In this document: positions 3,272 to 32,650 of the stretch, in pieces | Layout of the letters: the number at the start of each line of letters is the position of its first letter | Numbering within the stretch: position 1 is the stretch's first letter | IMG/VR virus record: IMGVR_UViG_3300044623_001154 | Span: 1 to 64,000 of that record | DNA from: a virus | Taxonomy: Duplodnaviria; Caudoviricetes | Direction: 5' to 3' (one strand) | Length of the DNA stretch: 64,000 bases | Translations under genes and position numbers: made by a program | Notes under the pieces: generated by a model | The model's input: only the letters and a program-made list of their open reading frames with translations | The model's database searches: none | What the model was told of the DNA's origin: nothing

Positions 3272-3345
3272 AACTTAAAAGAAATATAATTCAATCCCCA
3301 ATGATAAGTTGGGGTTTTTTTATTATATTTGTAAAAAAAGAAAAT

Positions 3346-3564
3346 ATGGGACTAATAATTTTTATCGCAGTACTTCTAACGTTAATCAATATCGTTATGA
3401 CTAAACAACTAACTAGCTTGCTAATACATAGCAGACTTGACACCCAATTCTTTTATAGATTATGTCTAATCCCTCCAATTGGGATTGTAACATATTGTTT
3501 AGCTATTATTGTAATAGTCATAACAGTTTTAATATTCACGGTTATGGATATTTGGTATAAATAA
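3346..3564 (+). CDS. Small two-TM membrane protein
   Basis: Two hydrophobic stretches; follows a TATATTTG promoter. Confidence 0.6.
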   Translation: MGLIIFIAVLLTLINIVMTKQLTSLLIHSRLDTQFFYRLCLIPPIGIVTYCLAIIVIVITVLIFTVMDIWYK

Positions 3565-3647
3565 TTTAAAGAAAAGATTATGGCGGTAATTGGAATTATA
3601 ATGGTGGTATTATTCATCAAAGGTGTGTTATTCTTAGATAAAAAATT

Positions 3648-4514
3648 ATGAGTTATCCTGAAACATTTAAAAAAGGGTTTATTACTGAGATTGAGAAAGA
3701 ACTCAAAAAATGTGAGATAATCTATAACCCAAACACAAAAGGTATTTGGTTTGTTAACCGAGAAGAAAAATATTGGTACTTAGAATATAAAATAGAAAGT
3801 AACTATCTATGGTGGAGATATGAATTTTTTAATATGTTAAAAACCTTATTTTCTATGCCTGATGAGGTATTTAATGATGTAATCTCTGAGTGGGTGGAAG
3901 ACACCCTAAATTGTAAGGTACTCTCAATCCACCACGTGTATTTTACATCTTCCACATTGGTGGAAGAGACCCTAAATTGTAAGGTACTCAAAATAGATGA
4001 AAGAAATTTCCCCCAAAATAAATTGGTGGAAGACACCCTAAATGGTAAGGTAGTCACAACTTGGTTGACTCCAGCAGAAAAAAATCCTTGGGTGGAAGAA
4101 ACCCTAAATATTAAGGTAGATTCAATGTGTGGTAGAAATGATGATTGGAATGAACAGGTGGAAGAAACACTAATTTGTAAGGTACTCAAAACAATAAGAA
4201 GAGACGGTTTTAAAGAATCTTCGGTGGAAGACACACTAAATTGTAAGGTACTCACAACGGCCCATTTCGAAAGTAAATCCTTGTTCAGGGTGGAAGAAAC
4301 CCTAAATTGTAAGGTACTCAAAACAAATCTAAAAAACACTGCAGATATATATGCGGTGGAAGAGACCCTAAATTGTAAGGTACTCAAAACTAGGTATGAG
4401 CTACAAAACGATGGGATAAAGGTGGAACAGACCCTAAATTGTAAGGTAGTCTCAACACAGAACCATTCATTAAAACAAATTGAATTGGTGGAAGAGACAC
4501 TAAATTTAAAATAA
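3648..4514 (+). CDS. Phage paralog-family domain fused in frame to a translated CRISPR-like array (22-aa repeats VEETLNCKVLKT + 10 variable aa)
   Basis: 288-aa ORF; unique N-terminal ~80 aa, then 9 full 66-nt units; stop codon lies inside the terminal repeat. Confidence 0.8.
   Translation: MSYPETFKKGFITEIEKELKKCEIIYNPNTKGIWFVNREEKYWYLEYKIESNYLWWRYEFFNMLKTLFSMPDEVFNDVISEWVEDTLNCKVLSIHHVYFTSSTLVEETLNCKVLKIDERNFPQNKLVEDTLNGKVVTTWLTPAEKNPWVEETLNIKVDSMCGRNDDWNEQVEETLICKVLKTIRRDGFKESSVEDTLNCKVLTTAHFESKSLFRVEETLNCKVLKTNLKNTADIYAVEETLNCKVLKTRYELQNDGIKVEQTLNCKVVSTQNHSLKQIELVEETLNLK
3893..4514 (+). CRISPR. CRISPR-like array: 10 repeats (consensus GGTGGAAGAVACCCTAAATTGTAAGGTACTCAMAAC, 36 nt) and 9 unique 30-nt spacers; no cas genes in window
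   Basis: Repeats start at 3893, 3959, 4025, 4091, 4157, 4223, 4289, 4355, 4421, 4487 (exact 66-nt period); spacers mutually unrelated; internal dyad ACCCTA..TAAGGT; last repeat truncated. Confidence 0.75.
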
Positions 4515-4570
4515 CGAGGGCAAATCTTACCCCTATTAAAATAACGAGAGTAATAAATACATCTGAAATT

Positions 4571-4807
4571 ATGACACAGGAAGACGCAAACGAATTAAAT
4601 AAAGAACAAGCATTAGAGGAGGGAAGACAACTAGCATTCCCATTATCAACAGGGTCAGGTTATCCTATTACAGGATTAACCAAAAGAGAATATATGGCAA
4701 CACAACTAATGGTGGGTTTACTATCAAACGGTCATAAAAAAGAAATTGCCGCAGGTCTCGCAGTTCAAGCAACCGAATTATTATTAATAGAACTAAATAA
4801 AAAATAA
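4571..4807 (+). CDS. Conserved small phage protein
   Basis: AFP...GLTKREY.ATQ.M.GLL...AV...D/ELL.EL motif common in phage hypotheticals. Confidence 0.7.
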   Translation: MTQEDANELNKEQALEEGRQLAFPLSTGSGYPITGLTKREYMATQLMVGLLSNGHKKEIAAGLAVQATELLLIELNKK

Positions 4808-4946
4808 TGAAAACACCGAAAGAAGTATTAGATGAGTTTATCATCGGAATGCCTGATGAAGATTGTATGAAAGGATTCATCATAAAAGCAATGGAAGAGT
4901 ACGCCAAATTATATCACGAAGAACAATTAACTAAAAATTAAAAACA

Positions 4947-5195: not shown

Positions 5196-5720
5196 ATGAA
5201 CGCTATGAATCAAGAACATAAAGAAGCAATAATTAATTATGTAAATGAATTAGGACTAACCGATACCCTAACCATTGTCGGGGGGAACAAAGATATTATT
5301 AGAAAAGCATATATAGATAATCCTGAAAGATATATGGATTACCTAATTGGTAATCTACTTAAAGACCACCAACCTATTAATGATGAAATATATTTCTATA
5401 AACCAATAGTAATTGGTGGGTATAATAATTATGAGGTTATATTCGAATGTAAAAGACCTGACTATGAATTTAAACTTAATGGTGACCTTTATGTTAGTCG
5501 GCGTATATGGAACTACTTCTATGTTAATATTATGTGTTTTACCACTAAAGAAATAGAAAACACAATCAAATCATGGATAACTAAAAATATCCCTGACCTA
5601 AGTTCATTAACTCCTGTATGTAAACAACCTAATTTATCTTTCTCAGCATCAACCATGGGTTATCGTGAAATTAGTTTCGAAGATGAATATATGGTTTTAC
5701 CAAGTAATCACAGAATATGA
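5196..5720 (+). CDS. Hypothetical protein, tandem paralog of 5717-6172
   Basis: Shares MNQEHK..IIN.VN..G...TL.I.GG.KDIIRK.YIDNPE..DYLIGNL and IWNYFY with the next gene. Confidence 0.75.
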   Translation: MNAMNQEHKEAIINYVNELGLTDTLTIVGGNKDIIRKAYIDNPERYMDYLIGNLLKDHQPINDEIYFYKPIVIGGYNNYEVIFECKRPDYEFKLNGDLYVSRRIWNYFYVNIMCFTTKEIENTIKSWITKNIPDLSSLTPVCKQPNLSFSASTMGYREISFEDEYMVLPSNHRI

Positions 5721-6172
5721 ACCAAGAACATAAAAACACCATAATCAATATGGTTAACGATATAGGAATCAGTAACACCTTAGACATAATCGGGGGTGAT
5801 AAAGATATTATCAGAAAAGTATATATAGATAATCCTGAATCTTATCTCGACTACTTAATAGGTAACCTATATCCAATGAAAGATTCATACGGATTAAATC
5901 GGTGGGTATATGAATATAAAGTTAATGTACTACACTATGAAGATAGTACAGATACGATTCTTATTGATGATTATATATGGAACTACTTCTATAAAAGTGT
6001 TATGCAATTTGATGATAGAACTATAGAATCCATACTCACTAAATGGTTATGTAAACACTACCCAAAACTATCCGAAAGAAAACCAATACCATATACTGAT
6101 TGGTGGGATGTGGATAAAAAAATAAATGCTCTTGCTGATGAATACAAATATTTTATGGGTTATAATCAATAA
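5717..6172 (+). CDS. Hypothetical protein, tandem paralog of 5196-5720
   Basis: See previous entry. Confidence 0.75.
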   Translation: MNQEHKNTIINMVNDIGISNTLDIIGGDKDIIRKVYIDNPESYLDYLIGNLYPMKDSYGLNRWVYEYKVNVLHYEDSTDTILIDDYIWNYFYKSVMQFDDRTIESILTKWLCKHYPKLSERKPIPYTDWWDVDKKINALADEYKYFMGYNQ

Positions 6173-8839: not shown

Positions 8840-9178
8840 ATGACAAATCGGGCGATTGATACATACGTAAAAGACTTTTTAACTTACCGACATAAGGATT
8901 GGTATTGGGTTATTAATCCTGACACTAAAGAGTGGTTGGTTAGTGTGGGTAAAACGGGATATACATTTTTCAATAGTGAGTTTTGGCTTACCTTTTCAAA
9001 GTTCTATCCTGTGAAGGATTTAACTAAGACAATACAGGATTGGGTCATATATAAATTGGATGCTCCAATAAGTGAACATTGTTACCCTGATTATGTAAGT
9101 GGGGACTATGATTGGAGGAATGAATTTGATATTATGGAAATTACTGAGGTTATTCACGAAGGTAAGGTATTTATCTAA
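8840..9178 (+). CDS. Hypothetical protein, W-x-x-E paralog family
   Basis: Similar to the 3648 N-terminal domain (W.INP.TKEW..., I.DWV...L). Confidence 0.7.
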   Translation: MTNRAIDTYVKDFLTYRHKDWYWVINPDTKEWLVSVGKTGYTFFNSEFWLTFSKFYPVKDLTKTIQDWVIYKLDAPISEHCYPDYVSGDYDWRNEFDIMEITEVIHEGKVFI

Positions 9179-32138: not shown

Positions 32139-32579
32139 ATGAAAATACTAATCACTGAAAATAAATTTAAAGATGCAATTAAATTAAGTTTAAAAGAGTT
32201 AGGAACTGAATCAACAATTGATAATGTTGGTGGGTGGGAGAACTTTTGTAAAGTAATGAACATTGAGGGTTTTATGGATTTCTTACACTTATTTGATGAT
32301 TTGGAACAAGTTCAATCTGAGGAAAGAGAACATTGGACGTTATTTCGTTATAAAAAAGGTAATAACTTAATGGTTTACGATAGAAAAAGTAAGGAAGTTT
32401 ACATTAGTAAAAAAGAAATTTGGTCGTTTTTGGGCGGTAAATTTGATTTAACTTATCCTGTTGTTCAGGCAGTTACAAAGAAGTGGTTGGGTGAGGTCTA
32501 CAATTTGAGGGGAATCAGAACAGAAATTACAACCACAAACAACCGAAGCCCCTACAAAGGTTCGTGCCAAATTACTTAA
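32139..32579 (+). CDS. MKILITE leader protein (GG module + W-x-x-E domain) ending in a CRISPR-like repeat
   Basis: C-terminal W|LGEVYNLRGIRT is encoded by a 36-nt GTTG...AAC repeat. Confidence 0.8.
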   Translation: MKILITENKFKDAIKLSLKELGTESTIDNVGGWENFCKVMNIEGFMDFLHLFDDLEQVQSEEREHWTLFRYKKGNNLMVYDRKSKEVYISKKEIWSFLGGKFDLTYPVVQAVTKKWLGEVYNLRGIRTEITTTNNRSPYKGSCQIT

Positions 32580-32650
32580 AGGGGAATCACAACAGAAATT
32601 ACAAACACAAACAACCTCAGTTAGTTGGGTGAGGTATAGAATTTAAAATA
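32486..32650 (+). CRISPR. Degenerate CRISPR-like mini-array, repeat GTTGGGTGAGGTCTACAATTTGAGGGGAATCASAAC (36 nt)
   Basis: Full repeat 32486-32521; partial repeat ending GGGGAATCACAAC at 32593; exactly 30-nt spacer 32594-32623; terminal truncated repeat at 32624. Confidence 0.6.

Follow-up and report, generated by a model that had tools for sequence, protein, structure and literature searches.

Architecture of the array gene

The stretch of DNA analysed here, referred to as the window, comprises the first 64 kb (64,000 nucleotides, nt) of the 72,977-base IMG/VR virus record IMGVR_UViG_3300044623_001154 and has a G+C content of ∼30%. The completeness estimate for the whole record is 26%, which implies that it derives from a jumbo phage. 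Our subject is an open reading frame (ORF) on the plus strand at 3648..4514, which encodes 288 amino acids and consists of an N-terminal domain followed by a translated array of regularly spaced repeats and unrelated inserts, reminiscent of a CRISPR array (short palindromic repeats that are clustered and regularly interspaced). Orthologues of this ORF have open frames as well, and it is a protein-coding gene of a lake jumbo phage and a member of a large family.

The N-terminal domain (N-domain; ∼82 amino acids, 3648..3892, plus strand) is predicted to comprise one helix, four strands and then a pair of helices, with the final helix continuing into repeat 1. This prediction was made with AlphaFold2 on the orthologue P0001 (94% identical) from a 58-row alignment, and the predicted local distance difference test (pLDDT) score is 74–83 over residues 1–80. 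Repeat 1 thus lies within the last predicted helix of the domain, in agreement with the first-pass annotation of the window, which was made from the letters alone and had the first repeat supply a helix. With the alignment, the repeats are modelled as strands at a pLDDT of 44–62; without it, the prediction is uninformative (pLDDT 39 overall and 24–42 in the repeat part), and the ESM Atlas was likewise uninformative for the protein. Comparison of the low-confidence repeat model with known folds gave CsgA (Z 7.1) and leucine-rich repeat (LRR) proteins (Z 5–6.6), all under the noise line of Z 8, and searches of Pfam and PHROGs returned nothing above threshold for the protein or for three paralogues.

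The repeats start at 3893 + 66i (i = 0–9), an exact 66-nt period within the ORF, and they are separated by nine 30-nt inserts that are mutually unrelated. This is the arrangement reported in the first-pass annotation, with the qualification that the tenth repeat is partial. The nine repeats that are complete at 36 nt lie on the plus strand at 3893..3928 (VEDTLNCKVLSI), 3959..3994, 4025..4060, 4091..4126, 4157..4192, 4223..4258, 4289..4324, 4355..4390 and 4421..4456, and the inserts, on the same strand, at 3929..3958, 3995..4024, 4061..4090, 4127..4156, 4193..4222, 4259..4288, 4325..4354, 4391..4420 and 4457..4486. Repeat 3 ends in CACAAC and is the best match to models of Cas13b-associated repeats, while repeat 9 has the genome's top score with a matrix of real Cas13b repeats. 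Repeat 4 is a variant (...ATATTAAGGTAGATTCAAT) that also accompanies insert 4 (CGRNDDWNEQ as translated) in a second phage locus, L163. Insert 6 (AHFESKSLFR) is present too as the last cassette, or translated insert, of protein P0002, and insert 8 (RYELQNDGIK) has an identical copy in locus L011, at rank 3 of 8. The terminal half-repeat (4487..4514, plus strand) matches the repeat for its first ∼20 nt, then continues as ...AAT TTA AAA TAA. The end of this tenth repeat is the stop codon of the ORF, and the translation runs without a stop across all nine inserts, both as previously claimed.

A 28-nt repeat pattern allowing ≤3 mismatches found nine matches in the window and none in 100 shuffles, and a 19-nt pattern allowing ≤2 mismatches found ten forward and no reverse matches across the whole 72,977-base record. 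The window array was missed by Tandem Repeats Finder, as is to be expected when whole units are far below 70% alike, and an Rfam search over 3300–4900 at E up to 10 gave three chance-level matches, none of them to a CRISPR-DR family. A minus-strand ORF antisense to the array (3803..4387, 194 amino acids), absent from the first-pass annotation, was also considered and is attributed to chance, its frame holding 1–10 stops in seven related arrays.

A family of array genes in lake phages

The same repeat occurs on four other viral contigs, in arrays of 4–16 units that are each open in the same frame. A metagenome scan yielded 285 relatives, and the best 80 loci of these 285 were kept for population counts; they hold 105 arrays and 727 repeats, and all population tests reported below are based on metagenome assemblies. 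Among 80 complete genes the number of repeats ranges from 2 to 17, and the family, whose N-domain measures ∼85 amino acids, is present in one to four copies per phage. Three tandem array genes are seen in each of the loci L180, L200 and L207, and four arrays in record G002 (85847–93121), each with its own N-domain. A protein search using the N-domain only recovered 28 metagenome proteins, and 27 of them run on into an in-frame array. In the exception, P0027, the N-domain is joined to a fragment of a serine recombinase (PF00239) exactly at the residue where the array would start (between ...IIS and G...); the fusion may reflect the insertion of a mobile element at the boundary of the repeat.

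Between clades whose N-domains are only 41–46% identical as protein, the repeat is identical at 29/36 nt. Members of the family are present in UniProt as uncharacterised proteins from uncultured phages, and a fold search of BFVD returned only uncharacterised homologues of uncultured phages (3 matches, E ≤0.001). Lake-water metagenome runs filed between 2018 and 2024 contain the window's stretch or close relatives of it, and the lake-water DNA runs show coexisting array variants.

The arrays are translated and selected as protein

The gene is a translated, selected and modular protein gene, whose 30-nt inserts have no relation to one another and show turnover by single units. In-frame stops are absent from 100 of the 105 arrays. 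Over 13,901 codons only 16 stops fall in the array frame, against 1,198 and 1,296 in the other two frames, and 12 of those 16 lie behind one frameshift. Every one of the 679 tabulated units is a multiple of 3 nt, with inserts of 30 nt in 653 units, 27 nt in 17, 33 nt in one, 36 nt in five and 39 nt in three; the table leaves out ten in-chain repeat-to-repeat distances of 98–138 nt, of which 117, 126 and 138 nt are divisible by 3 and the 98-nt one corresponds to a deletion in L163. In that locus (2812–2909), a stretch of 34 nt, taking in an insert's end and the greater part of a repeat, is missing and the array is frameshifted, making it a rare broken copy. By comparison, among 880 units of real type VI-B (Cas13b) arrays, 743 (84%) are 66 nt long, 11% are 65 nt and 3% are 67 nt, and 15% are not divisible by 3.

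Inserts shared between arrays carry 32 synonymous and 31 non-synonymous codon changes, where 23% synonymous would be expected (p = 1.6e-6). A transition bias would lift the expected synonymous share to about one third, and the excess is estimated to remain significant. The differences fall at codon positions 1, 2 and 3 in the numbers 17, 14 and 33. It follows from this excess of synonymous change that the protein is under selection.

Two inserts contain an in-frame TGA (L147:3211–3276 and 3747–3812; the same in L162), each between identical repeats, and no other inserts have stops. In both loci the array and its usual terminal motif carry on in frame past these inserts. Their placement between identical repeats is as expected of recent, unpurged insertions; they may be such insertions awaiting purge, nonsense mutations or instances of TGA recoding in that phage.

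Contigs from two lake metatranscriptome libraries (X22 and X23) cover the small upstream ORF and the N-domain at 95–99% identity (window 3300–3834). These contigs leave most of the array uncovered and are silent on the ends, strand and level of the RNA. One 95-nt contig from an RNA library consists of a repeat (window 4223–4258) between other inserts. DNA carry-over is possible for all of these contigs.

The repeat framework is conserved as DNA

Each unit comprises a 36-nt framework, encoding V-E-[DE]-T-L-N-C-K-V-x-[ST]-T, and a 30-nt insert encoding 10 residues. The framework is constrained as nucleic acid. In the window, base 1 of the repeat is G in 10/10 copies, where it occupies the third position of the codons TGG, TTG, TTG, TGG, CAG, TCG, AGG, GCG, AAG and TTG, and the last repeat bases (AC or AT) fall at codon position 2. 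The first-pass annotation had drawn attention to this invariant G and to the repeat ending mid-codon, and both features hold in all ten copies. Across the family, 642 of 679 copies (95%) have G at this third codon position. In the protein sequences taken alone, a residue that cannot be encoded by NNG occurs at the last cassette position in 3 of 151 distinct cassettes, compared with 28–45% at the other nine positions, and Met and Trp together make up 14% of that last position. G-ending codons are expected to be rare in a genome of 30% G+C. Together with the open frames, the NNG bias and the base-1 G uphold the earlier proposal that the array is translated and that the boundary of its repeat is set at the nucleotide level.

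Constraint of this kind extends into the framework. Its entropy by codon position is 0.73, 0.51 and 0.65 for the first, second and third positions, third positions thus being conserved to much the same degree as first ones, and GTG (positions 2–4) and AAG (positions 23–25) are each kept in >90% of copies, in a population of 347 repeat variants among 679 copies. At one junction, the insert opens on the wobble position of a Thr codon (ACN); at the other, its final two bases occupy the NN of an NNG codon. Nearly every stop-free 30-mer is therefore readable. TA, which would yield TAG, was never seen as the last two insert bases.

Inserts are unrelated and turn over unit by unit

Pairs among the 439 distinct 30-nt inserts differ at either ≤8 or ≥11 positions, bar three pairs at 9–10, with a mode of 22, and the inserts form 398 families by DNA. 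At the protein level, 180 ten-residue cassettes from 35 proteins (P0027, which is without an array, was excluded from these counts) fall into 143 families, of which 121 were seen once; the Chao1 estimate is ∼660 and the cassette families barely exceed shuffles. Neighbouring inserts are no closer to each other than random pairs (mean 21.7 versus 21.9 differences), with 0/466 neighbours at ≤10 differences. A diversity-generating retroelement target was considered and does not fit, as the inserts differ at ∼22/30 positions involving all base kinds and not adenines only; a reverse transcriptase was not searched for.

Among 93 non-redundant arrays there are 185 pairs with some, and <80%, of their cassettes in common, and where two arrays share ≥2 cassettes the order is the same in 90 pairs and different in 10. 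Cassettes are common to divergent phages, sometimes at different ranks, and the linkage of an insert to its adjacent half-repeats fades across the repeat. Sharing is polar: in the fifth nearest the N-domain a proportion of 0.12 of the inserts recur in another array, increasing to 0.36–0.40 in the two fifths farthest away; 71% of arrays have a unique first insert and 46% a unique last one, and array pairs with only a suffix in common number 53, against 10 with only a prefix. The distal end also has a constant form, in that seven of eight compared arrays (all but L010) finish in a half-repeat cut at roughly the same place.

The repeats flanking an insert are identical for 24% of 265 inserts that are unique in this sample, 9% of 220 shared inserts, and 5% of 1,346 pairs of repeats that belong to one array without being adjacent. 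In the 44 arrays with inserts of both kinds, and leaving out the first unit of each array, the flanks are closer at unique inserts (mean −1.83 nt; 33 versus 11 arrays; Wilcoxon p = 5.6e-4). New inserts being unlike their neighbours, this pattern argues for foreign insertion accompanied by duplication of the repeat, and not for duplication of a unit followed by divergence.

The G+C content of the inserts (0.34–0.45) exceeds that of the rest of the phage loci (0.29–0.32), which is compatible with a non-phage source and is no proof of one. Their amino-acid composition is unlike both the phage proteome and random translation (chi-square 119 and 102) and does not discriminate between the readings considered below.

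Resemblance to type VI-B repeats of Bacteroidota

Real arrays for comparison were taken from a scan of 185,579 species genomes with the pattern GTTG-N20-GGTA-N3-ACAAC-N30-GTTG-N20-GGTA, which gave at least 120 loci with 36 + 30 nt GTTG..GGTA..ACAAC repeats. Among the matches listed nearly all are from Bacteroidota, with Bergeyella zoohelcum ATCC 43767, Flavobacterium columnare and Segatella buccae ATCC 33574 as examples. Five of the eight large ORFs beside reference arrays that were tested with NCBIfam are Cas13b. The pattern was picked with the phage repeat already in view, which inflates the agreement at the fixed positions.

A matrix built from 107 distinct reference repeats was scored against both strands of the record, and the top nine of ∼146,000 36-mers are eight of the array repeats and one repeat, ranking 6th, of a decayed second mini-array that starts at 32486. 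At the 23 positions that the pattern leaves unfixed, the nine full copies rank from 2e-5 to 1.5e-2. A sequence-only covariance model of the real repeats places its six best window matches all on array repeats (E 0.002–0.05, rough values). The 66-nt period itself accounts for 653/679 phage units and 743/880 units of real arrays. On comparison with real arrays, the 36/30 geometry and the repeat ends are as in Bacteroidota Cas13b arrays, as stated in the first-pass annotation. There are also differences: position 2 of the phage repeat is G, not T, in 92% of copies, and the T-run is absent. Going by these alignments and scores, the phage framework is a diverged look-alike of the Bacteroidota VI-B repeats in length, spacing, ends and GGTA block.

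In the real repeats, an inner helix (11–15/22–26) is paired in 82.6% of cells and its covariation is above all 500 shuffles. The 150 phage repeat variants pair in 67.7% of cells in the terminal helix (1–4/33–36), and an alternative hairpin shifted by one base (helices 2–6/29–33 and 11–16/22–27) pairs in 73.5% of cells, with covariation not above shuffles. The earlier suggestion that the array loads host Cas13b is thereby weakened, the canonical inner helix being out of register.

VI-B arrays are described as receiving their spacers in trans through II-C Cas1, with both phage and host DNA as sources, and as being transcribed from the variable, leader end (PMC8092290).

How the units may have arisen

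The reading that we put forward, tentatively and as somewhat short of probable, is that the window locus is a translated CRISPR-type array whose units come from repeat-duplicating insertion and are then sorted by recombination and by selection on the protein. A new unit would be born when an unrelated 30-mer is inserted and a framework repeat is duplicated, as by a CRISPR adaptation integrase, most commonly near the end of the N-domain and also inside the array. Recombination between frameworks would then delete, duplicate and swap units. Translation would act as a filter, such that only in-frame, stop-free units persist and useful peptides come under purifying selection. The protein would probably stack its units in a solenoid-like manner, each unit contributing one variable loop, and its expected role would be that of a fast-evolving binder in phage–host or phage–phage conflict.

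The most economical candidate for the integrase would be a host type II-C-like Cas1-Cas2 acting in trans, as on VI-B arrays; a phage array without cas genes of its own could use host proteins. The more specific claim, that such a host complex put 30-nt prespacers into phage coding repeats in a register that allows translation, thereby generating peptide diversity and perhaps providing a sink for the adaptation complex, we regard as rather unlikely. Of the Cas1-Cas2 insertion that the first-pass annotation envisaged, one part stands, in that the turnover looks like insertion with repeat duplication, while the action of Cas1-Cas2 or Cas13b at the locus is unsupported.

Several observations weigh against an origin by CRISPR-type insertion. 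When 452 distinct inserts were searched for in five related phage records (610,851 bases), the best match scored 32 bits, compared with 36 for shuffled controls; no source was found in 340 kb of other loci or in INPHARED, and the 22-nt cores of four of the nine window inserts had 0 matches in IMG/VR, these searches having covered phage and virus DNA, with host genomes and lake metagenomes not searched for inserts. In the absence of an insert source in related phage DNA, an origin from the phages' own genomes is unlikely. Cas13b was not found in five phage records, nor Cas1 in the four that were searched, the records being 26–64% complete and the positive controls having worked. The best identity of the phage repeat to any of 120 sampled real repeats is 25/36, the inner helix is paired in only 28.9% of cells over the 150 phage repeat variants, and a structure-aware model of the real repeats gave no significant match (E ≥2).

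Further such points come from the gene itself. Repeat 1 aligns to the native C-terminal helix (...DWVIYKLD...) of an array-less paralogue at 8840–9175, an alignment which suggests that the framework started as coding sequence that resembled, or later came to mimic, a CRISPR repeat. Repeat 1 is also often divergent (VENKLN...) and is therefore not the usual template for duplication, and novel inserts arise array-internally too; a strict leader-end mechanism predicts neither. In the 41 distinct inserts of the window clade, G+C by codon position is 0.47/0.34/0.27, against 0.40/0.31/0.23 in native genes, and such a native-like pattern is unexpected for raw random DNA. Finally, the flank-similarity and polarity tests use 'unique in this sample' as a proxy for young.

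A model of the 150 phage repeat variants, run against 151 Bacteroidota genomes, gave weak matches only (best E 0.003) and touched real arrays weakly, so that no close host repeat was found in those genomes. Likewise, 886 spacers of sampled real arrays had no convincing match in 873 kb of these phages; the best were 19/19 from a Segatella buccae array (L045) and an AT-rich 25/27 from array L057. The latter match, of G003:1523–1549 to a spacer of an array in a Brumimicrobium metagenome-assembled genome, is too weak for naming a host.

Alternative explanations

The main competing account, possible if on balance doubtful, is that the gene encodes an ordinary but unusual tandem-repeat protein, a solenoid in which each coil would combine 12 framework residues with a hypervariable loop of 10 residues. 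Homologous recombination between frameworks identical as DNA would be the sole source of its diversity, whether inside one genome, among paralogues in tandem or between phages infecting the same cell, and the cassettes would come from an old pool shared by the whole population; the similarity to Cas13b repeats would then be fortuitous, and CRISPR enzymes would never act on the locus. Much of what is described above agrees with this account: the frame is maintained and selection acts on the inserts as protein, the 96% share of inserts with 10 residues would follow from a fixed coil length, divergent phages share cassettes, some of them at different ranks, and flank linkage fades across the repeat. 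Array variants coexist in lake-water DNA runs, repeat 1 aligns to the native end of the domain family, protospacers and cas genes were not found in the phage DNA searched, and the Cas13b inner helix is not preserved. The low-confidence AlphaFold2 model of the repeats is also solenoid-like, with matches under the noise line of Z 8.

Recombination alone provides no source for ∼400 unrelated insert families between which intermediate distances are almost absent, or for neighbouring inserts without a trace of similarity; the variable parts are neither alignable nor graded, and insert distances are bimodal. Nor does it predict that repeats should be more similar around unique inserts, that base 1 should be an off-codon G, or that G-ending codons should be conserved across clades with 41–46% identical N-domains, and the VI-B likeness in length, spacing, ends, GGTA and the 23 free positions must then be coincidence. 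In an ordinary solenoid the framework would be constrained as protein only; here both third positions and the off-codon base 1 are conserved. The first-pass annotation had listed what would make the locus an ordinary 22-residue protein repeat, and the results fall on both sides. Inserts are conserved at the protein level across relatives, as the excess of synonymous change indicates, unit length varies solely in multiples of 3, and protospacers were not found in the phage and virus DNA searched, host genomes not having been searched. By contrast, no alignment is possible between one insert and another, and there is a CRISPR repeat family, that of type VI-B, which the repeat resembles.

It is also conceivable, if improbable, that the main function lies at the RNA level, the mRNA being a multi-copy mimic of the Cas13b repeat, in effect an array-form RNA anti-CRISPR, by which host Cas13b would be soaked up or misloaded; translation would then be secondary, serving for instance mRNA stability. 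Conservation of the repeat at the DNA/RNA level exceeds coding needs, as this would require, the repeat resembles VI-B repeats, and a hairpin is possible, with 73.5% of cells pairing in shifted helices. Repeat mimicry is a known phage strategy (PMC10651486). However, a decoy would not require the purifying selection that acts on the inserts as protein. The canonical register of the inner helix is absent and the structure-aware model found no match, covariation of the alternative hairpin is not above shuffles, and no sampled host repeat is closer than 25/36. The contigs from RNA libraries, which cannot reveal ends, give no sign of RNA processing.

Very unlikely, in our estimation, is a multi-core peptide precursor, with the N-domain as leader, the framework as recognition or cleavage site and the inserts as released 10-residue peptides. 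Conserved flanks around hypervariable cores, with the flanks conserved as DNA, and the low predicted order of the repeat part would suit such a precursor. Against it, the inserts have no conserved residue for modification, and the off-codon G, the VI-B likeness and the flank-similarity result would all go unexplained; a processing enzyme beside the gene was neither looked for nor noticed.

An untranslated phage-borne CRISPR mini-array with a spurious ORF is hardly credible. By chance, 8/66 real VI-B arrays of ≥5 repeats are free of stops in one frame or another; here, 100/105 arrays are open in one and the same frame, the length of each unit is divisible by 3, synonymous change is in excess in shared inserts and the frame is continuous with a conserved N-domain.

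Other features of the window

The decayed second mini-array lies on the plus strand at 32486..32644, at the 3' end of the ORF 32139..32579, which ends within its second repeat. Here too the GTTGGG... repeat begins at the third base of a Trp codon. The two 30-nt inserts are near-identical over their first 23 nt, and the mini-array closes with a terminal half-repeat whose tail, ...AATTTAAAATA, is the same as at 4487. An hhalign comparison of the array-gene family with the ORF 32139..32579 was not significant (probability 0.6%).

The array-less ORF at 8840–9175 encodes 112 amino acids and is a distant N-domain paralogue by hhalign (probability 70%, E 4e-5), and the ORFs at 5196–5720 and 5717–6172 look by eye like further paralogues of the N-domain. 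Upstream of the array gene, the product of the ORF at 2625–2984 resembles, also by eye, a response-regulator receiver (MLIVDDEEDI...DIRMPNMDG...).

Implications

If the insertion reading is true, CRISPR-style insertion of units would be able to build and diversify a protein, and a phage would exploit or decoy the adaptation machinery of its host. The family would then constitute a new class of diversity-generating system beside diversity-generating retroelements, shufflons and V(D)J-like assembly, and would offer a ready scaffold that accepts arbitrary 10-residue inserts. If only the conservative reading is true, the abundant jumbo phages of lakes still carry a large family of hypervariable proteins that has gone unannotated, and the origin of unrelated cassettes in a DNA-conserved framework still needs a mechanism.

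A keyword search of the open-access literature found no description of a translated CRISPR-like array, which is not proof of absence. The published screen for phage repeat mimics reports no type VI case, and confident ORFs were masked ahead of it (PMC10651486). By that account an array of this kind would have been invisible to it, and the masking of ORFs in screens for phage CRISPR mimics is a blind spot for such arrays.

Comparison with known systems

A close counterpart is the type VI-B array. In both, a 36-nt repeat alternates with 30-nt unrelated inserts and the last repeat is decayed, and the repeats start with G(G/T)TG, have GGTA at 25–28 and end in CACAAC. Both kinds of array are transcribed from the variable end and are more conserved at the distal end, and related arrays are collinear with insertions and deletions. 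Unlike type VI-B arrays, the phage array is translated and under protein-level selection, with 0/679 units off-frame compared with 15% of 880, its inner helix is out of register and its repeat copies are much more variable. Novel inserts also appear internally in it, and cas genes and protospacers were not found in the searches made.

Off-target 'neo-CRISPR' integration by Cas1-Cas2 at repeat-like genomic sites is a rare laboratory event in bacterial genomes, which would yield a new repeat-spacer unit with a duplicated repeat outside a canonical array. It is not known to have been reported as a conserved and translated component of a family of phage genes.

Multi-core peptide genes are known from cyanobactin-type and fungal repeat precursors, and those of the cyanobactins have hypervariable cassettes between DNA-identical flanks. 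The phage gene is like the cyanobactin-type precursors in its DNA-conserved flanks and in carrying several unrelated short cassettes per gene. It is unlike them in having up to 17 units, CRISPR-like geometry and turnover, and no known processing enzymes.

RNA anti-CRISPRs, that is, solitary repeat units, and phage mini-arrays share with the phage array the principle of a phage-borne mimic of a host repeat (PMC10651486). The phage array differs from them in its many copies, its position inside a translated ORF and its ∼70% identity to sampled repeats. A solitary repeat unit is an intergenic small RNA with ≥90% identity to a host repeat, whereas the best match here is 25/36 and lies within an ORF; a closer repeat may exist in the host.

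As a protein, the phage product may be compared with solenoid binders such as LRR proteins, the variable lymphocyte receptors of lampreys and curli-like beta-solenoids. Fold matches to these are weak (Z 5–7), and Pfam and PHROGs gave no family match by sequence. It has in common with them a unit of ∼22 residues, an Asn-bearing framework and a variable face, and it stands apart from them in that its variable blocks are unrelated and of fixed length and its framework is conserved as DNA, including the off-codon base.

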